A stretch of 32,855 bases of DNA from Myxococcales bacterium (GCA_037441385.1 JBBISH010000075.1:1-32855); one strand, 5' to 3'. Shown: positions 7,225 through 31,177, counted from the first letter of the stretch. Translations and numbers: made by a program. The notes: generated from the letters alone by a model not told the origin.

Positions 7225-8166
7225 CTACGGGGTGCCGGTCGCGCTGGCGCAGCGGGGGAGTCCGACCCAGGTGCGGGTGTCGTGGGCCGTGACGAGGTGG
7301 ACGGCTCCAAGCTCGTGCAAGGCGTGGAGGTGGCCCAAGGTGTCGGCGGTCTGGTCGGCGTCGAAGTCTGCGAACGCACCGGCCAAGCGGCCCTTGGGAA
7401 CCGGTTCTTCAAAACCCTCTTTGACCCAGGCGGCGTCGCCGATGAAGAACCAGGGCTTGGTGCCGTCGCCGGTTTGGACCAGGTAGCTGGTGGCGCCGGG
7501 CGTGTGGCCAGGGGTGGGGACGGCAATCACGCTGCCGTCGCCAAAGACATCGCGCGACGCGGCGAAGCCGAAGAGCGGCGGGCCATCGAAGTCCATGCGA
7601 TCGATACGGTTTTGGAGGCCCGTGAAGTGGTCCTTCATGGCGCCGTCGGCAAAGGAGCTGGTCTGGGCGTCGGTGGCCGCGGCGTCGGCGCGCGCCATGA
7701 CGATGCGGGCGTTGGGCAGGTCGCGCAGGCCGCCGGTGTGGTCCCAGTGGCGGTGAGTAAGGAGGACGTGCGTGACTTGCTCGGGCCGTATGCCGACTTG
7801 CACAAGGAGCTTGCCCAGGCCCGTTGCGGGTCGGGCGGCGTTGCCGATGGCGAGGCGGAACCACCATGGCGCGGCGTCGATGTCGGCGGGGGTGGCCTCA
7901 CCAAGACCGGCGTCGATGAGGACGACCCGGTCGCCTTGGCGGAGCACAAAGGACGAATAGGCCTGCCGCCACGGGCCGCGGAAGAAGCCGCGTGCGCCGT
8001 TGCTCAGGTTTTCGTCGACTTCCAAGTGGATGAGGGCGCAGGGCTGCAGCGGCGGACTGCGCCGGGCCGGAAGCTCGGCGGCGGGGCGGGCGTACTGCGG
8101 GATGTTGGGCGCGCAGGCGCTGAGGAGTGCGGCAGTGGCGGCCACGGCCAGGGATCGAGCGTGCAT
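7225..8166 (-). CDS. MBL-fold metallo-hydrolase lipoprotein, N-acyl-homoserine lactonase-like
   Basis: AAGGAA SD before ATG 8166; lipobox LSA-C; LIDAG, THRHWDHTGG (HxHxDH), PTPGHTPG, FIGDAAW, TAHD. Confidence 0.85.
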   Translation of the reverse strand: MHARSLAVAATAALLSACAPNIPQYARPAAELPARRSPPLQPCALIHLEVDENLSNGARGFFRGPWRQAYSSFVLRQGDRVVLIDAGLGEATPADIDAAPWWFRLAIGNAARPATGLGKLLVQVGIRPEQVTHVLLTHRHWDHTGGLRDLPNARIVMARADAAATDAQTSSFADGAMKDHFTGLQNRIDRMDFDGPPLFGFAASRDVFGDGSVIAVPTPGHTPGATSYLVQTGDGTKPWFFIGDAAWVKEGFEEPVPKGRLAGAFADFDADQTADTLGHLHALHELGAVHLVTAHDTRTWVGLPRCASATGTP

Positions 8167-8340: not shown

Positions 8341-9525
8341 TCACTCGCCGCGGCGCGGGTCTTCTTGTTGCGAGGCCCGGCGGAGGGCGGCGCGGCCAAA
8401 GCGGTCGCGCACGGCATCCAGGGCCTTGTCCAGGCGCTCGTCGCGCTGGCGCTCGCGGTCTGAGAAGAGATCGGGCTGCACGGGCTCGCTGTCGGGCCGG
8501 AGGTCCCATGCCGCCATGCCGATCAGGCGGTAGGGCCGGCGGAGGTCGAAAAGCGGCAGGAGCTCTGCCGCTGTGGCGAGGAGCGCCCGGGCGCTGGACG
8601 TTGGCGGTGCCACGCGCGCCTGATGGGTCAGGAGCTGAAAGTCGGTGGTCTTGAGCTTGACCCGGACACCGCCGGCCCGCAAGTGTTCGCGGCGCAAACG
8701 GAAAGCGATGGTATCCGCAGATTCGATGAGGTGCGGCCAAATCGCGTCGCGGCCGACGGCATCGACCATGAGGGTCTGCTCCGAGCCGATGGACTTGGCG
8801 TCGCGGTCGGGCACGACGGGGCGGTCGTCGCGGCCCAGGGCGAGGTCCTGCAGGAACGGCCCGTGGCTACCCAGGGCGCGGGCGAGCCAAGCGCGATCGG
8901 CGGCCGCCACGTCGCCGATGGTCCGCAGCCCCAGGGACTGGAGCTTGGGTACGGATTTCTCGCCTACGCCCCAGAGGCGCGACACCGGCAGGGGCGCGAG
9001 AAATGCCTGGGTCTCTTGGGCTGGTACCACCACGAGCGCGTCAGGCTTGCGGAGATCCGAGGCGACCTTAGCGACGAACTTGCACGCCGCCACCCCGACC
9101 GAGACGCGCAACCCCGTCTCGCTCCACACACGCTCTTTCAGACGGCGCGCCGCGGCGACAGGGTCGCCCCAGAGGCCGCGCGTGCCGGTCAGGTCGATGA
9201 AGGCCTCGTCTAGCGACAGGCCCTCGACGAGCGGCGAAAAGCTGCCGAAGATCTCGAAGATCTGCGCACTCACCGCCTGGTACTGGGCAAACCGCGGCGG
9301 CACGATGATGGCCTGCGGGCAGCGACGCTTGGCCTGCGCCAACGGCATCGCCGAGCCCACGCCGAAGGGCCGCGCCTCGTAGCTCGCCGTGGTGACGACG
9401 GAACGCGGGCTGTCGTACGCGACCAGCACCGGCTTGCCGCGAAGGGCCGGGTCGTCGCGCTGTTCCACCGCCGCGTAGAACGCGTCCATGTCCGCGTGCA
9501 AGATGGCGCGCGCCGCTCCAGACAA
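8341..9525 (-). CDS. dinB: DNA polymerase IV (Y family)
   Basis: ILHADMDAFYAAVEQRDDP, TASYEAR, SLDEAFID, AKVASDLRKPD, LWGVG, KSIGSEQT; TTG start preceded by AAGGA. Confidence 0.96.
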   Translation of the reverse strand: MSGAARAILHADMDAFYAAVEQRDDPALRGKPVLVAYDSPRSVVTTASYEARPFGVGSAMPLAQAKRRCPQAIIVPPRFAQYQAVSAQIFEIFGSFSPLVEGLSLDEAFIDLTGTRGLWGDPVAAARRLKERVWSETGLRVSVGVAACKFVAKVASDLRKPDALVVVPAQETQAFLAPLPVSRLWGVGEKSVPKLQSLGLRTIGDVAAADRAWLARALGSHGPFLQDLALGRDDRPVVPDRDAKSIGSEQTLMVDAVGRDAIWPHLIESADTIAFRLRREHLRAGGVRVKLKTTDFQLLTHQARVAPPTSSARALLATAAELLPLFDLRRPYRLIGMAAWDLRPDSEPVQPDLFSDRERQRDERLDKALDAVRDRFGRAALRRASQQEDPRRGE

Positions 9526-9546
9526 GATGCATCCTTATGTCATGTT
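9521..9546 (+). repeat. Intergenic repeat site A, GACAAGATGCATCCTTATGTCATGTT (overlaps dinB SD and start codon)
   Basis: 23/26 identical to the reverse complement of site B (11457-11482). Confidence 0.8.
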
Positions 9547-9584
9547 AATGAAGTTGAAATGGAATCTTCGATCTAGTGCGGTTT

Positions 9585-11162
9585 CTAGTACGCCTGTGTC
9601 GGGGTCGAGCTGCCCTTGCCCGCGAGTGGGCCGCACTGGCCCAAGTAGCTGTCGCCCCAGCACCAGACGGTGCCGTCGCCGCGCACGGCGCAGGTGTGGA
9701 CGGTGCCGGCCGCCACGCCCAGGACGTCGCCAAAGCCCTTGAGTTCAGCCGGGAACGCGTTGGACGCGGCGGCGGGCAGGCCCAGCTGACCGTTGCCATT
9801 GCCGCCCCAGCACCAGAGGCCGCCGCCCGTGACCGCGGCGCACGAGTGGCTGCCGCCCGCGGCGATCGCGGTCGCGCTGTCCAAGGCCACGACTTGCGGC
9901 GTGGAGTAGTAGCTGTTGCCGCCGCCCGTGCCGAGTTGCCCAGAGGACTGCTTGCCCCAACACCGCACCGACCCGCCGACGACGATCGCGCAACCGTGGT
10001 TCTCGCCTGCGGAAAGCGTAGCAATGCCTTGCAGGCCGGAGATCACGACTGGGGTGTCCGCCTCTTTGCTGGTGCCGCCGTTGCCGTCGCCGAGTTCGCC
10101 GTCTTCGTTGTAGCCCCAGCAGAGACCTGTGCCAGTGGCGGTGCGGACACAGGTGTGGTTGGGCCCGGCGACGATGACAGTGGCCGCGGCGGCGCCGAGC
10201 TTGGCCTTGACCACGGCCTTGGGAATATTGGCAAGACCGTCGCCGAGTTGGCCAGCAGTGCCCAGGCCCCAGCACTTCACCGCGCCGCCGCCTACGATGG
10301 CGCACGAGTGGTAGCCGCCCGCAGCGACCGCGACCGCGTCGGCGATTTCGGGGACGGCGGTGGGCTTGACGAGAGTCTTGGCCGCAGCCGCCGGGCTACT
10401 TCCGCCGAACTCGTTGTCGCCCCAGCACAAAACGGCCCCGTTTGCGACGGCGCAGCAGTGGCTGGGACCGCAGGCCAGGTCGGTTGCGCCGCTGACGCCC
10501 TCGACAGGGCCCGGCGTGGCGCTGGAATGCCCGCTCCCGGTCTGGCCATCGCCGAGCTGTCCGGTGGCGCCGTCGCCCCAGCATTGCACGGTGCCGTCGG
10601 TGAGACGTGCGCAGGTGGTGTAGCCGGCGGCGACCACTTGGACGGCCTTGACGGGGTCGGCGAGGCAGAGGCCCGAGTGGCACGAATGGCCGTCGCCGCA
10701 CGGGCTGTTGTCGGCCGCGTTGCCGGACGAGCAAGAGCCAATCGCCATGCAGGTCAACTTCTTGCAGGGTGGCGCGGTTCCGCAACCGTTGACAGAACAG
10801 CCCGCGTCCGCTGCGGCGGTGTCCCCAGGCGCGGCATCGGTCGGCGAACCGTCGGGACCGGCCGCGTCGGCGGCTGCGGTGTCTCCGCTTGTCGGGTCCG
10901 GCGAGTCTGGCCCAAGCGTGGCGTCGCCGCCACTGGCCGTGTCAGCCGGTGCCGTATCGTTGCCAGGGGCGCCGTCCAAAGAGCCGCCCGAATCCGCCGC
11001 GGCGGCGGCATCTGCCCCGAATTGGTTGGCATCTGGGACGGCATTGGGGCAGCCGGCTAGGCAGACCGCAAGGGCGGCTCCCAGAGCGGCGAATCGAAGA
11101 ATCTTGAGCCTGTTTCTTGCCTGGGGGGCACAGGACCGGGGGCGGAAGCGGTCTGGAATCAC
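9585..11162 (-). CDS. RCC1-repeat (BLIP-II-like beta-propeller) lipoprotein; start GTG 11162 or 11195
   Basis: Lipobox LAG-C, D/A/P-rich linker, short Cys-rich segment, about 7 repeats of the type AAGGYHSCAI..GG.VKCWG.G..GQLGDG. Confidence 0.88.
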   Translation of the reverse strand: MIPDRFRPRSCAPQARNRLKILRFAALGAALAVCLAGCPNAVPDANQFGADAAAAADSGGSLDGAPGNDTAPADTASGGDATLGPDSPDPTSGDTAAADAAGPDGSPTDAAPGDTAAADAGCSVNGCGTAPPCKKLTCMAIGSCSSGNAADNSPCGDGHSCHSGLCLADPVKAVQVVAAGYTTCARLTDGTVQCWGDGATGQLGDGQTGSGHSSATPGPVEGVSGATDLACGPSHCCAVANGAVLCWGDNEFGGSSPAAAAKTLVKPTAVPEIADAVAVAAGGYHSCAIVGGGAVKCWGLGTAGQLGDGLANIPKAVVKAKLGAAAATVIVAGPNHTCVRTATGTGLCWGYNEDGELGDGNGGTSKEADTPVVISGLQGIATLSAGENHGCAIVVGGSVRCWGKQSSGQLGTGGGNSYYSTPQVVALDSATAIAAGGSHSCAAVTGGGLWCWGGNGNGQLGLPAAASNAFPAELKGFGDVLGVAAGTVHTCAVRGDGTVWCWGDSYLGQCGPLAGKGSSTPTQAY

Positions 11163-11420
11163 GATCTCCTCTCGTCGCCCCGGCAGGTAGATCACGTGCG
11201 CCTGGGTTCGGGTGGAGCATAGCAGGATTTGCCGTGGATGTGTGGAGTCTTGCGTGCGATTGGCCGATGCGGTCGCCCCCAGAGCGAGCGGCCAGGTCGG
11301 GGTCGACGCGCAAGCGCCTAGAGAGCGGATCAGCGGAGCCGGCGGGGTACGTGGGCGTGGGCTTGCCTTGGATTGGGCATCGATTCGGAACGCGCCCCTT
11401 GGGCGCGCGGCGCGGAAACG

Positions 11421-11449
11421 TTGACGGATCGCGGAAATTTACCTATTGC
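11421..11449 (+). promoter_or_regulatory. Possible sigma70-type promoter TTGACG-N17-TATTGC pointing into site B and the Cys-rich gene
   Basis: Good -35 and 17-nt spacing, weak -10, locally AT-rich. Confidence 0.35.
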
Positions 11450-11456
11450 TATCCAC

Positions 11457-11482
11457 AACATGACACAAGGATGCGTCGTGTC
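11457..11482 (-). repeat. Intergenic repeat site B, AACATGACACAAGGATGCGTCGTGTC on the + strand (inverted relative to A)
   Basis: GACAC-N11-GTGTC dyad; inverted copy of site A. Confidence 0.8.
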
Positions 11483-11546
11483 GGCCCGTCGATTGCCTGA
11501 CGGATTGCCGTGCAGTACACTGATTGCAGTCGCGAGGAGCTACAAC

Positions 11547-13709
11547 GTGCCAGGAACGCATACCCGCAATGGTCGCGCCAGTCTCGCTGCCGCGTTTGCC
11601 GTCCTATTGGCGTGCGGAAGTCCAGGCGAGGGTCCGGTTGGGGTTGCCTCGGTTGGGATGGGCGACGTCGGGGACACGTACGGCAACGTCGGCACCCATG
11701 ACCAGGGAACTGGGCGGGTCGCTGCGGATTCGGCACTGGAGGCGATGGACGGCAAACTGAGCCAACCCGAAGCTGGTCACCAAGGAGCGGTGCCGGATGG
11801 GGCTTCGGAAGCGGGCGCCGATGTTGCAGCATCGCTGGACGTGGTTGGCGACTGGGATGCAGACAACGCGCCGGACTGGGCGCCCTGGGACGTCGATGAG
11901 GCGGCCAACGACGTAGCTACCGCTGACGACGCGGTGGACGCCGGCGAAGCGGTGCCATCGGATTCAGACCTGGGCGTTGACCTCGTCGAAGACGCGACCA
12001 AGTTTCTTGATGGGCAACCAGATTCCTCGGCAGAGGATGGCACGGACTCGGACTCGGAGGCCAAGGGGCCAGGGCCCGATGCCGGCGACGCGGCCAAGCC
12101 GCAGGACGTGGCAGCATGCCCGTCGCCTCCAGGCTCGGGTTGCGATGATGCCGACCCCTGCACCGTGGATACCTGCGCTGCCGAGGGAGCGTGCATCCAT
12201 ACGGCTTTGGAGTGCGGCGACGGCAACCCGTGCACCGCGGACAACTGTGGTTCTACCGGAATATGTGCACACGTCCCACTGGATTGTGACGACAGCAACG
12301 CCTGCACTAGCGACACGTGTGGCGGGGCTGGCTCGTGCGTCCATGCGGCGGTAGATTGTAGCGACGGCAATCCGTGCACCCAAGACGGCTGTGCTTCTGA
12401 CGGGTTATGCCTGCACGTTCCCGCTGCATGCGACGACGGGAATGCTTGCACAGTAGACTCTTGCGCTGGTCCAGGTGGGTGTTTCCACGCCCCTGTGCTC
12501 TGCGACGATGCTGACATTTGCACGATCGACGCGTGCGAAAGCGGCGGGACATGCCTGCACGCACCACTCTCGTGCGACGACGGAAAGCTCTGCACGACCG
12601 ATTCATGTGCGCCCAAGAGCGGTTGCCTGCACGCGCCCGTCGACTGCGCAGACGATCTGGTGTGCACGCTGGACGGGTGCGACCCGGCCGACGGAGCATG
12701 TACGCACAGTCCGCAGCCTGACTGTGCTGGGACCTGTTCGAGTGGCGTGCCGTGGTGGCAGGGTCAGAAGTTCTCGTGCAAGGCCTTCGCGAACAGCCCT
12801 GGCTGGCAAATCGCGCCGGGCTTCGTGGCCAGGGTGGTCGCTGGCGCCGCTCAAGGATTCAAGCAACCCAACGCAATCGCTTGGGGTGGTTGCGGCTACG
12901 GCGGCAAGTTGTATGTGGTCGACCTGGTTGCCGCTTCGGTATTTGCCGTGGATTTGATGACAGGCAAGGTAAGCGTCTTTTCGAAAGGCGCCAACTGGCC
13001 AAGTCAGCCCGTCTTGTTGACTTCGGTGGCGTGGGACCAGGACGGTCTGCTTGACGGGGCGCTGTACATTGGCGACCAGGGAACCGACAACGATGGAGAC
13101 GCAAAGGTCTTTCGAATCGACGCGCTTGGCGCGTCGCAGGTATTTGTGGGCGGACCCGGACCCGGTCTAAACGACATCTTCACGATGGTCTTCGTAAATT
13201 CACCTGGGTATCCGGTGGGGCTCTACATCGCTGGCGACACCGACGGGCCTTCGGTGGACTGGGGAGTAGTCGATAAGACGGCAAACTCGATGACGTTTTC
13301 CAAGCTTCGCGATGCCGAGGGCGCGTGCGTCGATCAAGCAGGACAATTTGGCGGCGGACTGCTTGTAGCGCGGCCAGCCAGCGGCGGCTACTTGGGCGAT
13401 GACGGAATCGATCACCTACTGGCGGACGGGAGCAAAGGCGCCTCGTTGATTTCTGGCGTACCTGGCATCCATGCACCCGCAATCGCGCCGCCGGGGCCAT
13501 TTGGCGGCTTTCTGTATGCGGCGAGCTGGCAATCGGGAGAGATTCTTTCGATATCGCCTGCGGGCGCGGCCTCCACATTCGTCTCACAGCTTGCGCTGAG
13601 CAACTACGACGGGAACATTCTTGCCTTTTCGCCAGACGGAACCGCGTTGCTGGTCGCGGAGAGCATGGCGGGGCGGGTGGTCTGTGTCGAGGCCAACAGC
13701 GGCCCCTAG
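11547..13709 (+). CDS. Putative lipoprotein with 8 Cys-rich CDDGNxCTxDxC repeats and a C-terminal beta-propeller (NHL/SMP-30-like)
   Basis: GAGGAG SD 7 nt before GTG 11547; LAAAFAVLLA-C lipobox-like; acidic linker; 24-aa Cys repeats; propeller blades (PNAIAW..GKLYVVD, GALYIGD, LAFSPDGTALLVAES). An in-frame upstream ATG lies inside site B (11460). Confidence 0.82.
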   Translation: MPGTHTRNGRASLAAAFAVLLACGSPGEGPVGVASVGMGDVGDTYGNVGTHDQGTGRVAADSALEAMDGKLSQPEAGHQGAVPDGASEAGADVAASLDVVGDWDADNAPDWAPWDVDEAANDVATADDAVDAGEAVPSDSDLGVDLVEDATKFLDGQPDSSAEDGTDSDSEAKGPGPDAGDAAKPQDVAACPSPPGSGCDDADPCTVDTCAAEGACIHTALECGDGNPCTADNCGSTGICAHVPLDCDDSNACTSDTCGGAGSCVHAAVDCSDGNPCTQDGCASDGLCLHVPAACDDGNACTVDSCAGPGGCFHAPVLCDDADICTIDACESGGTCLHAPLSCDDGKLCTTDSCAPKSGCLHAPVDCADDLVCTLDGCDPADGACTHSPQPDCAGTCSSGVPWWQGQKFSCKAFANSPGWQIAPGFVARVVAGAAQGFKQPNAIAWGGCGYGGKLYVVDLVAASVFAVDLMTGKVSVFSKGANWPSQPVLLTSVAWDQDGLLDGALYIGDQGTDNDGDAKVFRIDALGASQVFVGGPGPGLNDIFTMVFVNSPGYPVGLYIAGDTDGPSVDWGVVDKTANSMTFSKLRDAEGACVDQAGQFGGGLLVARPASGGYLGDDGIDHLLADGSKGASLISGVPGIHAPAIAPPGPFGGFLYAASWQSGEILSISPAGAASTFVSQLALSNYDGNILAFSPDGTALLVAESMAGRVVCVEANSGP
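12141..12722 (+). repeat. 8 x 24-aa Cys-rich repeats (Dictyostelium CTDC/myxobacterial type)
   Basis: CDDADPCTVDTC, CGDGNPCTADNC, CDDSNACTSDTC, CSDGNPCTQDGC, CDDGNACTVDSC, CDDADICTIDAC, CDDGKLCTTDSC, CADDLVCTLDGC. Confidence 0.9.
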
Positions 13710-14209: not shown

Positions 14210-15082
14210 CTAGAGGTCCGTGCGGAGCTGCCAGAGCTCTGGGAAGAGCACCGTATCCAGCATTTTGCGCAGGTACCCGACGCCGCTCGTGCCGCCGGTG
14301 CCGCGCTTGAAGCCGATGACCCGCTCCACCGTGGTGACGTGCCGGAAGCGCCAGAGGCGAAATGCGTCTTCCAAATCGGTCAGTTCCTCGCCGAGTTGGT
14401 ACAGGTCCCAGTGCTCTCGCGGCGACCGGTACACGGCCAACCACGCAGCCAGGACAGCGTCACTGGTTCGGTGTGGCTCGGTCCAGTCGCGTTGCAAGTG
14501 CTCACTTGGTATGGAGAATCCTCGACGAGCCAGTAGAGCGAGGCACTCGTCGTAAAGCGACGGCGCGCGGAAGGCCGCCTCGACAACGGCAAACCGCTCG
14601 GTCCGGTGCGCGTGCGGTTGGAGCATCGCCGCGTTCTTGTTCCCCAGTGCGAACTCAATGCACCGGTACTGCCAACTCTGAAACCCGCTGGAATTACCAA
14701 GATATCCGCGAATCGCCGAGTACTCCGGCGGCGTCATGGTCGCAAGCACGTCCCAGGCATGCACCAACTGCTCCAGGATGCGCGACACGCGCGCCAGCAT
14801 CTTGAACGCCGGCGCCAGCTCGTCGCGCTGGATCGCCGCAATCGCCGCCGACAATTCGTGCAGCAGCAGCTTCATCCACAGTTCGCTGGTCTGGTGCTGG
14901 ACGATGAACAGGAGTTCGTTGTGGTCCGGCGACAGCGGATGCTGCGCACCCAGGATCGCGTCCAACTGCAAGTAGTCGCCGTAGCTCATCTTTTTCGAGA
15001 AATCCAACTCGGCACCTTCGTGTCGGATCTCGTGTCGGATCTCGTGTCGGATCTCGTGTCGGACGACGTCAGCGTTGCTCAT
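14210..15082 (-). CDS. kynA: Tryptophan 2,3-dioxygenase
   Basis: [62 protein letters not shown]. Confidence 0.97.
15018..15063. repeat. 12-bp tandem repeat (TCGTGTCGGATC) x3.8 in the kynA 5' end, encoding (RHEI)n
   Basis: Perfect units at 15018, 15030 and 15042, plus a 10-nt partial unit at 15054. Confidence 0.95.
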
Positions 15083-15103
15083 TGCACCCCCCGGAGTCAG
15101 AGT

Positions 15104-16405
15104 CTAGGTCACCGCACCACGGCGGGCGAACTGCGAGCCGCGCCACTCGTCGCTGTGCAGCACTTCGGCGAGTTGCTCCGCTGCGTCCCAAGCGTCGACG
15201 TAGCGCGTGTAGAGCGGCGTGAACCCGAATCGCAAGATGCCTGCGCCACCACGGCGGTCGGGGTCAGCACGAAAATCACCAACGATTCCACGGGCGATCA
15301 AGGCCTGCATGACAGGAAAGCCGTCGGGATGGGTCAAGCTCACCTGGCTGCCCCGCTCGCTTGGATCGGCGGGCGTGATGCAAATCAGGTCAAGACCTGA
15401 ACATTTCTCCTGAACTTGGCGGAGGAAGAGGTCGGTCAAGGCCACGGACTTGGTCCGAATCGCCGCCATTCCGCCCAGCGGCTCGGCGGCCCGCAACGTC
15501 GCAACGCCGCATTCCAGGGCCCGCAGCGCCAAGATGGGCGGGGTGCCGCACGCGAACCTTTGAATGCCGTCGGCGGGGCGGTAGCCGGGCTCGAAGGCAA
15601 ACGGGGCCGCGTGGCCCATCCAGCCGGATAGGGGCTGCCGCACGCCATCCTCCTGCAGCCGCCGAAGGTGGCGCGGGTGCACCCAGGCAAAGGCGGGCGC
15701 CCCGGGACCGCCGTTCAAGTACTTGTAACCACAGCCCACTGCAAAATCGGCATCCTCCGTGTCGTCGCGGTGGCCGGCGAGCTGCAGCGGCACCGCCCCC
15801 GCCGAATGAGCGAGATCCCAGACCACCTGCGTCCCGCTCCGGTGCGCCGCGCGATTCACTTCCGCCATCGGCAGCATCCGCCCAGTGCGGTAGTTCACGT
15901 GCGTCCACAGCACCACGGCCGCCTCTGGCCCCAGCGCCGCGAGCAGCTCGTCGTGGGCCACCAGTCTCAGCTCTAGCCCGTGTTGCGCGGCGACCGACTC
16001 GGCCACGTACAAGTCCGTCGGGAAGTTGCTCCGCTCGGAAAGCAGAACCCGCGCCCCAGGGCGGTCGCGCCGCTGCAGGGCCGCCGCCACGCTGAGCACC
16101 TTGTACAGGTTCACCGACGTCGAGTCGCCCACCGCGACCTGCTCCAGACCTGCCCCAATCACCGGCGCCAGTTCGTCGCCGATCCGCCGCGCCAAGTCGA
16201 TCCAGCCGGCGTCGTTCCAGCTGCGAATCAGACCTTGGCCCCATTCGCCCGCCACCGTCTCTGCGACACGGCGCTGGGTGGCTTTGGGGAGCGCGCCCAG
16301 GGAGTTCCCATCCAAGTAGACCAATCCGTCCGGCAAGTCGAACTGCGCGCGGAGCGGCCCCAACGGGTCGTCCCGGTCGAGTCGTTCGCATTCAGCACGG
16401 TTCAT
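15104..16405 (-). CDS. kynU: Kynureninase (PLP-dependent); start ATG 16405 or GTG 16411
   Basis: YLDGNSLG, NFPTDLY, WDLAHSAGA, VGCGYKYLNGGPG, ERGSQVS, RFGFTPLY. Confidence 0.97.
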   Translation of the reverse strand: MNRAECERLDRDDPLGPLRAQFDLPDGLVYLDGNSLGALPKATQRRVAETVAGEWGQGLIRSWNDAGWIDLARRIGDELAPVIGAGLEQVAVGDSTSVNLYKVLSVAAALQRRDRPGARVLLSERSNFPTDLYVAESVAAQHGLELRLVAHDELLAALGPEAAVVLWTHVNYRTGRMLPMAEVNRAAHRSGTQVVWDLAHSAGAVPLQLAGHRDDTEDADFAVGCGYKYLNGGPGAPAFAWVHPRHLRRLQEDGVRQPLSGWMGHAAPFAFEPGYRPADGIQRFACGTPPILALRALECGVATLRAAEPLGGMAAIRTKSVALTDLFLRQVQEKCSGLDLICITPADPSERGSQVSLTHPDGFPVMQALIARGIVGDFRADPDRRGGAGILRFGFTPLYTRYVDAWDAAEQLAEVLHSDEWRGSQFARRGAVT

Positions 16406-16414
16406 CGCCACCCC

Positions 16415-17038
16415 CTACCGCAACGTCCGCAGCGCCGCGCGCACCGGCGAAGCGCACGCCCCCGCGATCCGCAGTGGCAGCGCCACCAGCTCATAGTCCC
16501 CTTCGGCCACACCGTCCAGCATCAGGTTTTCAAGTACCCGCATATTGGTCCGGAGCAGCATCTGATGACAGGGCAGGTCTTTGCTCTCGGCCGGGTCGAC
16601 CGACGCCGTGTCGATGCCCACCAGGCGCACCCCCAGCTCGGCCAGGAGCGCAACCGTCGCCGGGGCAATGGCCGCGAAATCGGGCGACCATTGCGTGGGC
16701 GCAGACTCGCAAGTCCGCAATAGGACTCGGGGCGGCAGCCCGGCGACGACCCGCCGCACGTGAGCCGGCTCCACGAGCGCCCCACAACCGCGCACATCGA
16801 GCACCCGGCACGGCCCCCAGTACGGCTCCAGGTCCACGTCCGCGATGGACGGCGCCCCGCTGGCGTAGTGCAGCGGCGCGTCCGCGTGCGCGCCCGTGTG
16901 GGGCGAGAGCGACAGCGCCGACAGGTTCACCGGACAGCCTGGGCCGATGGTCGCTGTCCAGCGCAACGCAAACGGCTCGTCGCCGGGGAACAGCGGCGAG
17001 CTTTCGCTGATTCTTGGCGAAATATCCAATATTTTCAT
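16415..17038 (-). CDS. kynB: Kynurenine formamidase (arylformamidase, cyclase family)
   Basis: DISP, SPHTGAHADAPLHY (HxGxHxDxPxH), GIDTASVDP, LENL, YELVALPL, ASPVRA; first gene of kynBUA. Confidence 0.95.
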   Translation of the reverse strand: MKILDISPRISESSPLFPGDEPFALRWTATIGPGCPVNLSALSLSPHTGAHADAPLHYASGAPSIADVDLEPYWGPCRVLDVRGCGALVEPAHVRRVVAGLPPRVLLRTCESAPTQWSPDFAAIAPATVALLAELGVRLVGIDTASVDPAESKDLPCHQMLLRTNMRVLENLMLDGVAEGDYELVALPLRIAGACASPVRAALRTLR

Positions 17039-20530: not shown

Positions 20531-22801
20531 TTACTGCTTGGCGATGAGCGCCTGCAGCGGACCGCGGTCAGTGCCAATCACGCTGCGGACCCACTCGGCG
20601 GCGACGTCAGCGACGATGATGGCGCCGACCTCGGTGTGGACATTGGTGTAGATGCCAACGTCCTTCATCCGCACCGTCTGCCGCTGGTTGTCCTCAGTGG
20701 GCGAGACAAAATGCACCGAGCTGATCTTGTAGCGGTAGACGAGGAACAGGTGGGCGAGCGTCATCAGGCGCTTCTTGCGCAGCGCCGGGTCAAAGTTGTT
20801 CTGGTCGCGTACCGACAGGATGTGGTGGCCGCGCCGATCGACGATGTTCGCGAAGATGACGTTGAGGGCCTTCTTGCCGTCGGCGCCCAGGATCGCCAGC
20901 TCCAGCAGCTCCGAGCCCGCGGAGTGGGGCCGCAGCTGCACCTTGAGCGTGCCCTCGATGCCGTGGTGCGCGGCCCACAACGCCAGCCATTCTTCCAGGA
21001 CCTTTGGCGGAACTTCGGTCTGGACCAGATGCTGGAACTGGGTGGAACCCTTGCCCATCGCCTTGGTGGTCGACGTCCGGCCCGACAGCGACATCAGCGC
21101 TTCGTCGGCGCGCGGCCCGCCCACCAGGGTCTGCGGCGTGCGGTACGGCGACTCGACCAGGCGGAACTTCCGCTGCAGCCGCGCCAGCGCGAGCATGCCG
21201 TCCTGCTTCAGGGCCGCGGCGAATTCCTCGGCCGCCAAGCCGTCGATCTGGTGCCCGCCGTAGGTGATGAAGTTGAACACGAACCCCATCTTGCCCAGCT
21301 CCGCCGGGAACTGGCGCATCTGGTCGTCCGTCATCCCGGTCGTGTCCCAGTTGAACGAAGGCGACAGGTTGTAAGCCAGCATCTTGGTGGGGAACTTGGC
21401 GTGGATCGCGTCCGCAAAGCGCTTCGCATCGTGCAGGTCCGCCGTCTTGGTCTCCATCCACAGGATGTCCGCATAGGGCGCCACAGCCAGCGACTTGGCG
21501 ATCGCGTAGTCGATGCCGCCGCGAATCTGGTAGTAGCCGTCTGGGGTTTTGGCGTGTTCGCAGTCCCACGTCACGCTCGCGCCCAGCTCGGCGGCGCGCC
21601 GGCTCGCTTCGTAGAAACCGACGTGCTCGGCAAAGTCCAACCACTCTTGGCGGCTCACGTTCTTCAGCCGCCCTTCGCTGTGGGCCGAGTCGATCTGATC
21701 CGCCACCGCTTCGGCGTAGGTCTTGATGCCCGCCGCCTCTTGCCACACGTCGACGAACTTGTTGAAAGCACCGTCAAAAGCCACGTCAACATTGAAGATT
21801 TTACGGTCCAGGTAGTCCTTGGCCTGCTTGTCGACCAGTGCCAGCAGCCCCTCGCTGTCCAGCCACGCCTCGGCCTCGGCGTACTCCGCGGCGCAAGTGG
21901 CATAGATGCGGTGCCCGCTCAGTTCGGTGATGCCGTGCCCGTAGAACCGCTTGAGAATCGACAGGAAGCCGGCCTTGAAGGTCGGCACGTCCACGTTCGT
22001 CGCCCCCAAGATGAACGGCTGATCGCGCTCGTCGCCGCGGCCGTCGAGCAAGGTCGCACTCTCGGCGTCGGTGCGGGCCACGATGATGCCGGACACGCCC
22101 ATGATATCCAGCTGGAAGCGCGCCGACGAAAGCCGTTTGATCTGCTCATCTTCCGCGACCAACACCTTGCCGCCTTGGTGGCCACACTTCTTGACGCCCG
22201 GCTTCTGGTCCTCGATGTGGTAGCCCGGAACACCCACTTCCACAAAGCGGCGAATCAGGTTGCGAACATGTGCGTCACCGCCGTGGCCCGTGTCGGCGTC
22301 GGCAATGATGAATGGCCGGAAATCGACTTCTGCAACACCCTTGCGCACTTCCGCGGTCTGACGGGCCCGCGTGTGGGCCTGATTCTTGTCCGCGGTCAGC
22401 AGGGCCCGCACCACCATCGCCGCCTCGTCCGGCACGCGCGACAGCGGATAGCTGGCCAGGTCCGGCCCCGGATCCTCGTCGACAAAGCCCTTGGCGCTCG
22501 TGGCCCAACCGCCAATGTAGATGCCCTCGATGCCGGCGCGCTTGGCCGCCACCGCCTGACCGGGCGAGTACGGGCCAAACGTCGTGATGGCCTCGCCAGC
22601 ACGGAACAGCTCGCGCAGACGGGCATAAAAGCCCTCTGCCGCCGTGCGGGCCACCGTGTAGTCCGTGGGGATCGTACCGCGCTGCTCCGCGATCTCGCGG
22701 GCGCTGTGGAGCCGCACGACATCGGAAAACCGTTCGGAATCAAACCACTCCTGCACACCCCTGACCTTATCGGTCTGGACCTTTTCTCCAACGCTTCCCA
22801 T
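20531..22801 (-). CDS. aceA: Isocitrate lyase, long ICL2-type with C-terminal regulatory domain
   Basis: [56 protein letters not shown]-terminal [27 protein letters not shown] domain as in mycobacterial ICL2; 756 aa from ATG 22801. Confidence 0.95.
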
Positions 22802-22832
22802 AGCATCCCCCAGTGGCCCTTGGCCGCGCACC

Positions 22833-22868
22833 AAGATGCCTGCTGCGACACGCTGCGTCAATTGACGC
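22833..22868 (-). promoter_or_regulatory. Candidate aceA promoter (TTGACG-N17-CATCTT) with a perfect 14-bp palindrome GCGTCAATTGACGC over the -35
   Basis: -35 at 22856-22861, -10 at 22833-22838, palindrome at 22855-22868. Confidence 0.45.
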
Positions 22869-22921
22869 GCCCCGTAACATGTCATGATCAGGCAATTCCC
22901 GTGCGTTGCGCCCGTGTTCCG

Positions 22922-23791
22922 CTACGCGGGCTTCCGGCCGGCCGCCAGCACCGCACCAAACTGGACAACGGCGATGCCAGCCAGCACGGACAGGGCCCCC
23001 AGGCCCTGGCGGAGCGACGGCGACTCACCGAACAAAAGCGCGCCCCACGCCAGCGTACCCACCGGCTGCATCAGCAGAATCGTGCTCCCCTCGATGGCCG
23101 GCAGCCGCGGCAGCGCCGTGGACAGCGCCATCCAGCCGCCCACTTGTACAACCAGCGCCACCGCCACCAGCCAGCCGTGGGCCGGCCACGTCGGCACCAG
23201 CGAAAACCCGGGGTCGATCGTCAGGCCAGCCAGCAGTGCCGTCAGCGCGATCCCCGCCGTCGAGTCGCGCAACTGCCCTACCGGCAACGTATCGCCGCGG
23301 CAGGCCCGCCGGTGCACCAACAGGTAGGCCGAATACGCCAGCGCACCCAGCAAGCCAAACAGCGCCCCCACCAGCGGATTGGCGCCATAGGCCGCCCGGT
23401 CACCCAGACCCGCGCACAGGGCCACCCCGCCCAGCAGCAGCGGCAGCGCCAGCGCCATCCGCAGCGGCGGCCGCTCGCGGTACAGCAGCCACGAAGCCAG
23501 CGTGACCCAAGCAATCTGGGTGTTCACCATCACCGTGGCCAAGCCGGCGCCGATGCGCTCGATGGCCGCGTGCCAACTCACCAGATCGACACCAAACAAT
23601 AGCCCGCCCACCAAGGCCATCCAACGGATCCGCGGCGGCAGCGAGCGGCGCCGGGCCAGCCAAAACAGCACAGGCAGCGAATACAACGCGCGAAAGAACG
23701 CTCCCGTCGCCGGAGCCACGGCCGAGAGCCGGAAAAAGATCGCGGCAAGCGACAGGCCAAGGACGCCCAGCAGCGCGAGCAAGTGGTTCAA
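22922..23791 (-). CDS. EamA/DMT family transporter
   Basis: About 10 hydrophobic helices in two repeats; GAGLATVMVNTQ, LYRERP, LLMQPV, LLFGESPS; GAGGT SD before TTG 23791. Confidence 0.9.
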   Translation of the reverse strand: MNHLLALLGVLGLSLAAIFFRLSAVAPATGAFFRALYSLPVLFWLARRRSLPPRIRWMALVGGLLFGVDLVSWHAAIERIGAGLATVMVNTQIAWVTLASWLLYRERPPLRMALALPLLLGGVALCAGLGDRAAYGANPLVGALFGLLGALAYSAYLLVHRRACRGDTLPVGQLRDSTAGIALTALLAGLTIDPGFSLVPTWPAHGWLVAVALVVQVGGWMALSTALPRLPAIEGSTILLMQPVGTLAWGALLFGESPSLRQGLGALSVLAGIAVVQFGAVLAAGRKPA

Positions 23792-23898
23792 GTGGCGGAC
23801 CTCGCGGCGGCAGTATCGCGTTTGGCTGCCGGCCGGCAGTGTGCCGCGCTTCGCCAAAGATTGCATCCTGGCAAGGCCGCATGCGAAGGTACGCCGCC

Positions 23899-25707
23899 AT
23901 GGCAGCGGCTCCGCAAATTCTCATCATCGGTGGCGCCTCGGTCGATAGCCTGCGCGCGGGCGGCCAGCCCTTGGTCACTCCCGGCGGCGGCGCGCTCTAC
24001 ACCGCAGTAGCGGCCAAGAAAGCCGGCGGGGACGTCGGTTTCTTTGGCATGAAGCCCGACCCGCTCCCCGAGCTCTTCCATCTGGCGGCGCGCGAAGCCG
24101 GCTGGGTCGGCCCGCCGTGCCGGCTCGAGGACATCCCCCACTTCGAAATCGTCTACGACGACGACGGTGCCGCGCGCCTAGTCAACGCCGTGTGGGGCTT
24201 GGAAGACCGCCTGGATCCCGCCACCTTGCCCGACGAGCTCTTGGAGGCCGAGTACATCCACCTCGCCGCCGTCCACGATGCGTCCGTGCAGGTCAAGTTC
24301 ATCGAGCGGATTCGCACCCGCTCCAAGGCCAAAATCTCGGCCGGCACCTTTGGTTACATGGTGCATCGCTCGCCCGACGCCGTGCGCGCGCTCATGGACC
24401 TGTGCGACCTCTTCTTCTTGAACGCCTTCGAGGCTGAGACGGTTTTTGGCAGCCAGCACCCGGTGGTCCGCGCCGGCCAGATCCTGGTCGTCACCCGCGG
24501 CGCCGACGGCGCCGATGTCTGGCAGGGCGACCACTGCACCCGCATCCCGGTGTGTCCGTCGCGACCGGTGGACCTGACTGGGGCCGGCGATTCGGTCTGC
24601 GGCGGCATGCTCGCCGGCCTCTCGCAGGGCATGCACCCCGTCTTTGCGGCCCGCCTGGGCGCCGCGCTCGCCTCGATCACCATCGAAGGGCCCGGCATGC
24701 ACTCGCTCCTGGCGGCGGATCCCTCAGAGGTTTCGCAGCGTTGGGCGCCGCTCATCGACAAACGGGTCGCCGTCGACGACGAGCAGGTCGAGGCGGTGGC
24801 GCGGCTCATCCGCGACCTGGACGACGTACGGCCCTTCGATTTTACCGGCCCCTACTTCCCCGATGCCGGCGATCCGCGAACCATCTCGTGGTTCTTTGCC
24901 GCCATCAAGCACCAGTTCGGCTTCTGGATGCCCTACAACGGCAACTGGGCCGCCTCGACCTATGCGTGTTGGAACGGCCAGCAGCTCAAGGGCTCGGACT
25001 ACTGCTTTGCCGCGTGGAAGCGCGTGCTGGACGACCATCCCGAGTACTTGTCGCCCCTGGGCCACGTCTCGGTCCGCTACAACGCCTTCGAGGCGATTTT
25101 CCGCGACGATCTGGGCCGCACGCCGCTGCCGGTGCTCGCCACCCACTACAACCTGGCCATCAACTACGGCCGCGACCTGCACCAGATGGGCTGGACGCCC
25201 GAAACCCTGGTGTCCGAAGCGCAGTTGCAGCCGCGCCCGGTGCGCTGGCTCCTGCAGCAGTTGGACCACCTGCCCGGCTACCGCGAGGACCCGCTGCGCA
25301 AGAAGTCGATGCTGCTGGTGGTGGCGCTGGGGCAGCGACCCGAGAAATTCATCGAGCTTTCCGAGCAGTCCGACGTCGCGCCGATCATCGACTACCACCT
25401 GATGCGTTCGTGCCTGCGGACCGGGCTGGTGCGCATCGACGACCCGGAGTTGGAGCGAATGGTCGCGGCCCGGCGCCTGCTCAGCCCCACCGACGAAAAC
25501 GCCCTGCGCATGCCGTGTTTTGATGCTGTGCGCCAGCTGTCGCGCCGCTCGGGCCGCAGCATCGCCGCCATCGACTGGTTCTTCTTTGGCGCCCGCAAGC
25601 GCTGCCCCGAGGTCGAGGCCCCGGACTGCGCCCGCTGCGCCATCGACCCTGTGTGCGCGCACCGGGTCGGACTGTTCCAACCCGTCTATCGTACTACGTT
25701 TTACTAG
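23899..25707 (+). CDS. Fusion: PfkB/ribokinase-family kinase + Qng1/DUF2419 (queuosine salvage)-like glycosylase domain + C-terminal 4-Cys Fe-S motif
   Basis: N-terminal half (firm): PGGGALYTAVAA, FLNAFEA, VVTRGADG, VDLTGAGDS. C-terminal half (tentative family call): QFGFW, DPLRKKSML, PIIDYHLMRSCLRTGLV, ENALR, IDWFFF, then C-X7-C-X2-C-X5-C. AAGGT SD before ATG 23899. Confidence 0.75.
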   Translation: MAAAPQILIIGGASVDSLRAGGQPLVTPGGGALYTAVAAKKAGGDVGFFGMKPDPLPELFHLAAREAGWVGPPCRLEDIPHFEIVYDDDGAARLVNAVWGLEDRLDPATLPDELLEAEYIHLAAVHDASVQVKFIERIRTRSKAKISAGTFGYMVHRSPDAVRALMDLCDLFFLNAFEAETVFGSQHPVVRAGQILVVTRGADGADVWQGDHCTRIPVCPSRPVDLTGAGDSVCGGMLAGLSQGMHPVFAARLGAALASITIEGPGMHSLLAADPSEVSQRWAPLIDKRVAVDDEQVEAVARLIRDLDDVRPFDFTGPYFPDAGDPRTISWFFAAIKHQFGFWMPYNGNWAASTYACWNGQQLKGSDYCFAAWKRVLDDHPEYLSPLGHVSVRYNAFEAIFRDDLGRTPLPVLATHYNLAINYGRDLHQMGWTPETLVSEAQLQPRPVRWLLQQLDHLPGYREDPLRKKSMLLVVALGQRPEKFIELSEQSDVAPIIDYHLMRSCLRTGLVRIDDPELERMVAARRLLSPTDENALRMPCFDAVRQLSRRSGRSIAAIDWFFFGARKRCPEVEAPDCARCAIDPVCAHRVGLFQPVYRTTFY

Positions 25708-30454: not shown

Positions 30455-31177
30455 ATGGACGATCAGCAAAAGTGTCAGAAGATCCAGCAAATTCTCGACC
30501 AGCTCTACCCTGCACCGCCGGTGCCGCTGGACCACCGCGACCCCTACACGTTGCTGGTGGCGGTGCTGCTGTCGGCCCAGTGCACGGATGTGCGGGTCAA
30601 CCAGGTGACACCGCGCCTGTTTGCGCTGGCCGACCATCCGGCCGGGATGGCCAAGCAGTCTGTTGAAACAGTTCGCGAAATCATCCTGCCGTGCGGCCTG
30701 TCGCCGCAGAAAAGCAAGGCGATCGTGCAGCTGTCGCGGCAGCTGATCGAGCACCACGATGGCCAAGTGCCGGCCGACTACGACGCGCTGGTGGCTCTGC
30801 CGGGCGTAGGCAACAAGACGGCGCAAGTCGTGATGGCGCAAGCATTTGGCCTACCGTCGTTCCCGGTCGACACACACATTCACCGGCTGGCGGCGCGCTG
30901 GGGCCTGTCCAGCGGCAAAAACGTGGAGCAGACCGAGCGCGACCTCAAGCGCCTGTTTCCGCGGGACCAATGGAACAAGCTGCATTTGCAGATGATCTAC
31001 TTTGGCCGCGAGCACTGCCCGGCACTGCGCCACGACCCAAAGACGTGTCCAATTTGTGCCTGGGCTGCCACGGAAGCAAAGAAAACGGCTACGGAAGCTG
31101 CAGGTGCCCCGAGCGGCCGCCCCACTTCTCCAGCAGGCGCACGGGGCCAATCACGGCGGCGCGGTCCACCGCCTTGA
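30455..31177 (+). CDS. nth: Endonuclease III
   Basis: LLVAVLLSAQCTDVRVN, HhH LPGVGNKTA, FPVDTHIHRL, LHLQMIYFGREHC. Confidence 0.95.
   Translation: MDDQQKCQKIQQILDQLYPAPPVPLDHRDPYTLLVAVLLSAQCTDVRVNQVTPRLFALADHPAGMAKQSVETVREIILPCGLSPQKSKAIVQLSRQLIEHHDGQVPADYDALVALPGVGNKTAQVVMAQAFGLPSFPVDTHIHRLAARWGLSSGKNVEQTERDLKRLFPRDQWNKLHLQMIYFGREHCPALRHDPKTCPICAWAATEAKKTATEAAGAPSGRPTSPAGARGQSRRRGPPP

Follow-up and report, generated by a model that had tools for sequence, protein, structure and literature searches.

A PfkB kinase fused to a Qng1-fold N-glycosylase domain in Myxococcales: a candidate enzyme for phosphorylating and then deglycosylating guanine-type nucleosides

We analysed a 32,855-nucleotide stretch of DNA from a Myxococcales bacterium (GCA_037441385.1, JBBISH010000075.1:1-32855; hereafter the window), in which a gene for a PfkB-family kinase fused to a domain resembling the N-glycosylase Qng1 (DUF2419) lies head to head with an EamA transporter gene (positions 22,922 to 25,707). 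A preliminary description, made from the sequence alone, had proposed that the two halves act in succession on queuosine or another modified nucleoside, the kinase making the 5'-monophosphate and the second domain releasing the base, with the EamA protein as importer. The 602-residue open reading frame (ORF), its intact PfkB domain and the motifs quoted there are all present, as is the divergent transporter gene, at the following coordinates.

23899..25707, + strand: fusion gene (P0001), N-terminal PfkB kinase and C-terminal Qng1-like glycosylase (ORF, translation, homologue alignment, AlphaFold2 (AF2) model)
23899..24765, + strand: PfkB (ribokinase-family) kinase domain, residues 1-289 (PF00294, motifs, fold)
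23929-23946, + strand: GGASVD motif (coordinates checked)
24421-24435, + strand: NAFEA motif (coordinates checked)
24577-24591, + strand: TGAGD motif, residues 227-231 (coordinates checked; invariant)
24766..25704, + strand: predicted Qng1-fold N-glycosylase domain, residues 290-602 (313 amino acids; profile A3, AF2, Foldseek)
24913-24927, + strand: QFGFW motif (coordinates checked)
25276-25305, + strand: GYREDPLRKK motif (coordinates checked)
25300..25305, + strand: Lys468-Lys469 (alignment to S. thermophilus Qng1, StQng1)
25390..25398, + strand: Asp498-Tyr499-His500 (DYH; alignment to StQng1)
25495-25509, + strand: ENALR motif (coordinates checked)
25573..25587, + strand: Asp559-Trp560-x-x-Phe563 (DWFFF; alignment to StQng1)
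25603..25656, + strand: Cys569-x7-Cys577-x2-Cys580-x5-Cys586, putative metal-binding loop (conservation, insertion relative to Qng1)
25702..25704, + strand: C-terminal Tyr602 (conservation; counterpart of StQng1 Tyr323)
22922..23866, - strand: divergent EamA/DMT (drug/metabolite transporter) gene, 314 amino acids (Pfam EamA, 1.7e-22)

The frame is open over 23839..25707 (+), 622 residues counted from its first GTG. An ATG at 23899 gives 602 residues plus a stop, the length stated in the preliminary description, and is the likely start because homologues of 602 residues align from residue 1 and a GAAGG lies 10 nt upstream. A GC content at third codon positions (GC3) of 0.87 in the gene (window GC 67%) and hundreds of homologues argue that it is real and not a chance frame: at E ≤ 1e-3, the C-terminal domain matched 845 proteins of 331-1054 residues and 402 of at most 330. 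The nearest loci, at 98% and 95% identity, come from metagenome-assembled genomes (MAGs) labelled Deltaproteobacteria or Myxococcales.

The C-terminal domain is modelled with the two-lobe helix-hairpin-helix (HhH)-type fold of Qng1/DUF2419. For the AF2 model of the domain alone (predicted local distance difference test (pLDDT) 92.7, predicted template modelling score (pTM) 0.91), the ten best PDB matches in Foldseek were all Qng1/QNG1, with template modelling (TM) scores of 0.74-0.77, E-values of 1e-10 to 3e-9 and 15-16% identity, and EndoIII/MutY formed the next-best fold class at TM 0.41-0.49. The domain had been called helical, which is true of most of it, but a four-strand β-meander is also present.

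Sequence comparison reached the same family once profiles were used. As a single-sequence query of the PDB the domain was too weak (human QNG1 at E = 0.66), and the full protein returned PfkB matches only (best 60 of 65). A close-family profile, A1, reached human QNG1 at E = 8.7e-9 over the N-lobe only. A register along the full length required the broader profile A3 of 37 sequences, which includes divergent relatives (the Pfam cut-off is passed by 9 of 16 of these); with it, human QNG1 was matched at E = 5.3e-14 and StQng1 at E = 7.9e-17, the latter over chain residues 24-312; the StQng1 chain of this alignment carries the motif series attributed to Qng1 earlier (NFxFW, KRAQ, ADYxVPxxLxxxGxL, ExEIR, DWxxW). 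The proposed comparison with Pfam Q_salvage (PF10343) gave a divided answer, in that the window protein scored 19.9 bits as a full ORF and 21.8 bits as an isolated domain, over profile positions 4-121 of 285 (N-lobe only) and short of the gathering score of 25, while its family profile found StQng1 as above. Q_salvage was matched at E ≤ 0.01 by 31 of 36 close relatives (best 5.5e-11). The preliminary assignment of a PfkB domain fused to a Qng1/DUF2419-fold domain is borne out by both profile and fold.

To place the active site, functional residues of Qng1 were taken from PMC9881137 and the register from the A3/StQng1 alignment (7u07_A numbering, identical to the paper's); window residues were mapped by hand, and conservation was counted in 136 fused and 160 stand-alone homologues. 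According to that paper, K199 of the HhH motif orients the ribose, Asp231 is the nucleophile, Tyr232 stacks on the ribose, Lys233 binds the phosphate, Asp298 recognizes the base by its guanine-type edge, and the terminal carboxylate of Tyr323, held by Glu267, belongs to the active site. In the fusion protein K199 corresponds to K468 (136/136 fused, 156/160 stand-alone) and D231 to D498 (136/136, 157/160), so that the catalytic Asp expected in the DY motif is indeed kept. Likewise, Y232 aligns with Y499 (136/136, 152/160), E267 with E533 (134/136, 148/160), R271 with R537 (at least 134/136 and at least 148/160) and D298 with D559 (136/136, 154/160), and F75 and W76 are kept as F342 and W343. 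The terminal Tyr323 has its counterpart in Tyr602 (...TTFY), and a final Tyr closes 136/136 fused and 155/160 stand-alone sequences; this match is one of sequence, the last three to four residues of the models having pLDDT below 50. Tagging Qng1 at its C-terminus inactivates it. At the phosphate site, K233 is replaced by H500 (136/136, 157/160), Q306 by K567 (K or R in 99/136 fused versus 63/160 stand-alone), and the flanking R566 is invariant; a counterpart of R80 is not clearly kept.

The residues that adapt Qng1 to queuosine have fared differently. PMC9881137 describes a proton relay, Asn72-Asp69-Asp207, coupled to queuosine's secondary side-chain amine, and a cyclopentenediol pocket made of W48, Y93, W94, W299, P46 and H53. 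D69 has become I336 (T/I/V/C in the family), D207 A476 (I/A/V) and N72 Q339 (136/136 fused, 130/160 stand-alone); Y93, W94 and D91 are S366, D367 and K364, and W302 is F563 (133/136, 123/160). W299 aligns with W560 (W or Y in 119/136 fused) and is the one residue of the cyclopentenediol pocket retained, the W48/H53 region being poorly aligned. By these alignments, the machinery for ribose-5'-phosphate binding, glycosidic cleavage and recognition of a guanine-type edge is conserved, and the pocket and relay that give Qng1 its queuosine specificity are not, so the early caution that the substrate may differ from queuosine was well placed. We assign the domain to a new Qng1-like subfamily, fused or stand-alone, that is distinct from canonical Qng1.

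For the kinase, residues 1-289 matched PF00294 with E = 8.8e-27 and 94.7 bits (gathering cut-off 25.8). The PfkB/ribokinase family is characterized by a GG dipeptide and the NxxE and GAGD motifs as its catalytic signatures. Across 39 fused homologues G11, G12, D16, G29, G30, N175, E178 and T227-G-A-G-D231 are invariant, and because the catalytic motifs are invariant the PfkB domain is very probably active, with Asp231 of the fusion protein presumably acting as catalytic base. The full-length AF2 model (pLDDT 91.9, pTM 0.92) gave 416 PDB fold matches at E ≤ 0.001, and all among the matches listed are PfkB-family kinases. Target TM was highest for nucleoside kinases (3kd6, 0.80; 2c49, 0.79), with ribokinases at 0.66-0.74, or 0.66-0.75 once 2-keto-3-deoxygluconate (KDG) kinase is included, and the top Foldseek E-values belonged to the ribokinases 8cqx and 6znx. 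In their source databases, relatives are named 'carbohydrate kinase family protein', 'sugar/nucleoside kinase' or 'hypothetical'.

The models predict specific packing of the two domains against each other. When they were modelled as separate chains, each with its own alignment, the interface score ipSAE was 0.92, against 0.00 for the best control; at least 97% of contacts agreed between two-chain runs, and partner pLDDT was at least 92. Among solved complexes, 116 of 157 pass the mark applied to ipSAE, and among mismatched pairs 2 of 215 do so; these rates are only rough here given our use of an own alignment. In the predicted interface the invariant H246-P247, one helix past TGAGD, packs against residues 456-467, the loop that runs into K468. 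The models thus support a fixed interdomain interface near both active sites.

The domain is widespread. Its profile retrieved 837 representatives at 50% identity, 449 of them at E ≤ 1e-10, and 390 proteins, a sample shaped by length-binned searches and not a census, were sorted into 136 PfkB fusions, 160 full-length stand-alone forms (about 320 amino acids; 143 by a stricter rule), 92 partial sequences and 1 with another N-terminal partner. By source name the fusions fall in Myxococcota, Chloroflexota and Acidobacteriota, and stand-alone loci in Kiritimatiellia and Verrucomicrobiota. A FastTree phylogeny of 297 domains showed a broad region of fused forms and two large clades of stand-alone ones, with 15 changes of architecture, some of which may be truncated gene calls, versus 93 expected under shuffled labels (minimum 77). 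No match to the C-terminal domain was found by tblastn among plasmids and phages.

We also found a second, rare fusion, in which GTP cyclohydrolase II (PF00925, 4.5e-38) precedes the Qng1-like domain (P0335). The same architecture recurs in P0391, at 63% identity and 99% coverage; one of the two lies on an 85-kb contig, and both keep all catalytic residues of the domain together with the four cysteines described below. From this fusion, guanine-derived ribose-5'-phosphate N-glycosides suggest themselves as substrates of the domain. Both GTP cyclohydrolase II and a PfkB nucleoside kinase yield ribose-5'-phosphate N-glycosides with a 2-amino-4-oxo ring, which fits the conserved phosphate site and D559. 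Neither this fusion, nor the abundance of stand-alone forms, nor the invariant cysteines and C-terminal Tyr had been part of the preliminary description.

A four-cysteine loop, C569-x7-C577-x2-C580-x5-C586, separates the DW..F helix from the C-terminal tail; all four Cys are present in 136/136 fused and 158/160 stand-alone proteins. It is an insertion of about 18 residues, modelled at pLDDT 91-96; the StQng1 tail here has 15 residues and lacks the loop. The [4Fe-4S] loop of EndoIII has the spacing C-x6-C-x2-C-x5-C. Profile A3 reached ROS1 at E = 1.2e-3 in a match running from the catalytic Asp through the Cys loop, and several EndoIII entries at E of about 0.1; Pfam EndIII_4Fe-2S was matched by 1 of 36 members (E = 0.0025), and one Atlas neighbour cluster bears the name 'iron-sulfur cluster loop family protein'. 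A metal site in this loop is likely, and it is probably a [4Fe-4S] cluster as in EndoIII/MutY, zinc being the alternative. Against this assignment, which is built on motif and position only, the 55-residue tail alone gave 0 PDB matches and a 60-residue tail profile (17 sequences) matched no EndoIII/MutY entry. PMC9881137 mentions neither iron nor a cluster in Qng1. If confirmed, an Fe-S (or other metal) site would be the first in a Qng1-type enzyme, and would tie mononucleotide salvage enzymes more closely to EndoIII/MutY.

Two further cysteine patterns came to light. The window encodes an EndoIII-like HhH-GPD protein at 30455-31177 (+; Pfam 5.1e-21; orthologue in L001 at 7363-7989) whose C-terminal region reads C-x9-C-x2-C, lacks a fourth Cys at the expected distance and continues into a long tail rich in Ala, Gly, Pro and Arg; having three Cys only, it was dropped as a comparator for the loop. 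In nine proteins of more distant Qng1-like subfamilies (P0365, P0374, P0375, P0377, P0378, P0383 and P0385-P0387), a longer insert with 6-8 Cys replaces the four-Cys loop; these still end in Tyr and may hold a second metal site.

Gene context was surveyed in 24 related loci (237 neighbour ORFs, 99 + 138) and in 25 further ORFs of the window. The EamA and fusion start codons are separated by 32 bp (23867-23898), and either both promoters are embedded in the adjacent coding sequence or EamA translation begins downstream of its first ATG. The only Rfam match at E ≤ 1 around this divergent promoter, gntR-DTE (21.8 bits versus 63.6, E = 0.23), was taken as chance. EamA adjoins the fusion in 2 of the 24 loci, L001 and L002, both 95-98% identical to the window; Pfam detected no EamA among the 237 neighbour ORFs, although ORF calling missed the L001 and L002 genes and distant ones may likewise escape, and L017 has a DMT_6 gene 4 kb upstream. 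The case for EamA as a dedicated importer of the fusion is thus weak, other loci having either a CNT Na+/nucleoside transporter nearby or nothing relevant. CNT genes occur near the fusion in 4 of the 24 loci (L004, adjacent and divergent; L006; L009; L010), that is, in 4 of the 9 fused loci whose upstream sequence extends for 6 kb or more. SmpB comes directly after the fusion in L001, L002, L003, L005 and L007 and lies within 3.5 kb in L009, L011 and L015, most simply explained as synteny within the clade.

Several other arrangements were seen around these genes. In three Myxococcota loci, three tandem AIM24-family genes lie directly upstream of the fusion (L008, 7691-9898; L009, 3977-6107; L010, 7478-9931), with an acyl-CoA dehydrogenase beyond them and, in L009 and L010, the CNT nucleoside transporter. 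In L019 (Kiritimatiellia, 9121-12157), a lipid A acyltransferase gene ends within the stand-alone Qng1-like gene, and an RtcB RNA ligase gene begins 4 nt downstream of the latter. L006 and L011 are labelled as Klebsiella pneumoniae/Enterobacteriaceae MAGs, labels that look wrong given GC contents of 59% and 71% and Myxococcota-like gene content: both have the fusion and an acyl-CoA dehydrogenase, with the CNT gene in L006 and CoA transferase, SmpB and fatty-acid desaturase genes in L011. The rest of the window resembles a myxobacterial chromosome, with RCC1 and Dicty_CTDC repeat proteins, multihaem cytochromes, SmpB, a histidine kinase with a sigma-54 activator, MoaC and FBPase in addition to the EndoIII-like gene. 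It also holds a compact kynurenine-pathway cluster at 14210-17038 (-; tryptophan 2,3-dioxygenase, kynureninase and a cyclase-family kynurenine formamidase-like gene) and, directly beyond the EamA gene at 20531-22885 (-), a long-form isocitrate lyase of 784 amino acids that matches Pfam ICL in two stretches and is kept in L002.

We infer that the kinase makes a nucleoside 5'-monophosphate, from which the glycosylase then frees the base and ribose-5-phosphate, and that the substrate is of the guanine or 7-deazaguanine type, other than or not limited to queuosine; we put the probability of this reading at roughly 0.55. Following this logic, the PfkB domain would transfer a phosphate from ATP to the 5'-OH of a ribonucleoside that is imported or arises from turnover, and the C-terminal domain would take up the product, as homology to Qng1 suggests. 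The phosphate would sit in a basic pocket formed by His500, Arg566, Lys567 and Arg568, and the ribose would be held by Lys468, Phe342, Tyr499 and the C-terminal carboxylate of Tyr602, itself positioned by Glu533. The base would be stacked by Leu472 and Phe563 and its 2-amino-6-oxo (guanine-type) edge read by Asp559, whereupon Asp498 would cut the N-glycosidic bond to give free base and ribose-5-phosphate. The terminal Tyr (291 of 296 proteins) and the basic phosphate site suggest a mononucleotide rather than a polymer as substrate. The pocket for a substituent at position 7 of the base is rebuilt, and the substrate is therefore most likely a guanine- or 7-deazaguanine-type compound beyond queuosine. 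According to PMC9881137, Qng1/QNG1 prefers queuosine-5'-monophosphate, for which an upstream kinase is postulated, and canonical Qng1 leaves GMP, AMP, CMP and UMP uncleaved. With the basic phosphate pocket kept and the two domains predicted to interact, the order of steps first proposed for the fusion still seems the best account of it. The CNT nucleoside transporters near the fusion in four loci also count in favour of this reading.

A number of observations weigh against this reading. The separately modelled domains are halves of one chain, so their high interface score is less surprising than it would be for separate proteins. Stand-alone domains are abundant and work without a fused kinase; a PfkB gene was adjacent in 0 of 6 stand-alone loci, the one in L019 lying about 4 kb upstream among lipopolysaccharide genes. 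On the kinase side, the margin of nucleoside-kinase folds over ribokinases and KDG kinase is small, NCBIfam kinase models all scored far below cut-off (best 43.4 versus 330 bits), and Atlas labels for the family are a generic 'carbohydrate kinase' only. On the glycosylase side, the window protein falls under the Q_salvage cut-off, an NCBIfam search found no model covering the domain, and the replacement of the relay residues D69 and D207 by hydrophobic ones leaves the chemistry of leaving-group activation unaccounted for. The preference of StQng1 for the 5'-phosphate is only 1.7-fold, the free nucleoside being cleaved at about 60% of the nucleotide rate (PMC9881137). There is no tgt or que gene among the 237 ORFs of the 24 loci or in the window, and no riboswitch (0 Rfam matches at gathering score in the same sequences), and therefore no independent link to a pathway.

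Some of these points lend themselves to other explanations. In one, the fusion serves queuosine salvage in the strict sense: the PfkB domain would be a queuosine kinase, and the second domain would free queuine for TGT from queuosine-5'-monophosphate as Qng1 does. The domain has the fold and the catalytic core of Qng1, this nucleotide is its preferred substrate and one whose kinase the literature calls unidentified, the frequent W or Y at position 560 could preserve one wall of the cyclopentenediol pocket, and binding of the side-chain amine or diol by the polar S366, D367 and K364 is conceivable. Table 1 of PMC11130926 includes EamA (PF00892) as an untested candidate transporter of queuosine precursors, and the eukaryotic queuine/queuosine transporter SLC35F2 shares the drug/metabolite-exporter fold with EamA (PMC12207525). 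The counterparts of D69, D207, Y93, W94 and N72 are nevertheless replaced across the family, a relay through the secondary amine of queuosine would be impossible in its Qng1 form, and the rarity of the EamA neighbour counts against this explanation, as does the lack of tgt/que genes and of a preQ1 riboswitch; we consider it unlikely. Reversing the order of the steps, so that the C-terminal domain hydrolyses a nucleoside to base and ribose and the PfkB domain, as a ribokinase, traps ribose-5-phosphate, would accommodate the stand-alone forms, the cleavage of free nucleoside by StQng1 and the ribokinases among the best matches (8cqx, 6znx; TIGR02152 at E = 3.2e-10). Such an order is distinctly unlikely in view of a phosphate site whose residues are basic and conserved (H500 and R566 invariant, K/R567 commoner in fused than in stand-alone proteins), a second fusion partner, GTP cyclohydrolase II, that also supplies a 5'-phosphorylated N-glycoside, and target TM scores that are highest for nucleoside kinases.

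Could the domain instead excise bases from DNA or RNA as an Fe-S HhH glycosylase, with a separate or regulatory role for the kinase? Its EndoIII-like cysteine spacing, the A3 matches to ROS1 and EndoIII, the rank of EndoIII/MutY as next-best folds and sub-threshold AGOG or HhH-GPD matches in some relatives point that way. The TM scores to that class are nonetheless far below those to Qng1, the Qng1-type tail and terminal Tyr, which in Qng1 fill the DNA cleft, are invariant, and both fusion partners are small-molecule enzymes, all of which makes a nucleic-acid substrate very unlikely. Least probable of all, in our judgement, is a sugar kinase carrying a non-catalytic ligand sensor or scaffold: it would suit the names given to the family in its sources and the Pfam score of the domain below cut-off, but a full Qng1 catalytic set that is near-invariant in 296 proteins, stand-alone forms included, would be unexpected in a degenerate domain.

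If the kinase-then-glycosylase reading holds, the widespread natural fusion would be direct genomic evidence that these two steps are a selected unit. The kinase making queuosine-5'-monophosphate was called unknown in the structural paper of 2023 (PMC9881137) and again in the transporter paper of 2025 (PMC12207525). The fusion would point to a concrete kinase family to consider. We found no paper on a PfkB-Qng1-like fusion, a queuosine kinase or an Fe-S Qng1 in a search that did not take in Zallot et al. 2014, the founding DUF2419 paper, which may discuss bacterial architectures; one supplementary file of PMC11130926 has no PF00892, PF00294, EamA or PfkB entry. The rebuilt base pocket would imply a substrate outside the current map of 7-deazaguanine/guanine salvage; should the substrate prove to be ordinary guanosine, or the coupling reversed, the finding would shrink to a modest addition to nucleoside catabolism. 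A bolder generalization, which we hold to be doubtful, would make this protein the founding example of a new enzyme class, Fe-S Qng1-fold mononucleotide N-glycosidases. Their natural fusions, with PfkB in hundreds of bacteria and with GTP cyclohydrolase II in a handful, would reveal a dedicated route in which 7-deazaguanine or other guanine-type nucleosides are first phosphorylated and then deglycosylated. PfkB-family kinases would in that case, by a Rosetta-stone argument, be candidates for the kinase that supplies queuosine-5'-monophosphate to QNG1 in eukaryotes. The substrates that might then be considered, just as tentatively, are queuosine, preQ1/preQ0 ribosides and ring-opened guanine nucleotides.

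Each part of the fusion has known relatives. Its kinase shares a fold with the PfkB nucleoside kinases of Chlorobium tepidum (3KD6), M. jannaschii (2C49) and B. thailandensis (3B1N-3B1R) and with ribokinases (target TM 0.66-0.80), and GG, NxxE and TGAGD are intact as in other members of the PfkB/ribokinase family. It differs from known PfkB kinases in its low identity to them (17-23%), in reaching no equivalog model and in its attached glycosylase, and the stretch after its GG motif (GGGALYT) is unlike that of any PfkB family compared here. The C-terminal domain resembles the [4Fe-4S] HhH DNA glycosylases EndoIII/Nth, MutY and ROS1/DME in its HhH-GPD-type catalytic Asp and in the near-equal spacing of the putative metal-binding cysteines beyond it, but its N-lobe and C-terminal tail are of the Qng1 type, and its predicted substrate is a mononucleotide and not DNA. 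COG3236 N-glycosidases are fused to riboflavin-pathway enzymes and follow the same logic of making and then cleaving a 5'-phospho-ribosyl N-glycoside; the folds are unrelated, yet the rare GTP cyclohydrolase II fusion is a parallel. The nearest comparison is with Qng1/QNG1 themselves (DUF2419; 7UK3, 7U07, 7U1O and 7U91 from S. thermophilus, 7UGK from human), which share the predicted two-lobe HhH-type fold over the whole domain and the catalytic and ribose/phosphate-site residues (K199, D231, Y232, E267, R271, D298, W299, F75, W76 and the C-terminal Tyr). Like them, the domain probably acts on a nucleoside 5'-monophosphate; unlike them, it is joined to a kinase in a large clade, is only 15-16% identical, and has its queuosine-specific pocket and proton relay replaced (D69, D207, Y93 and W94, with N72 to Q and W302 to F).

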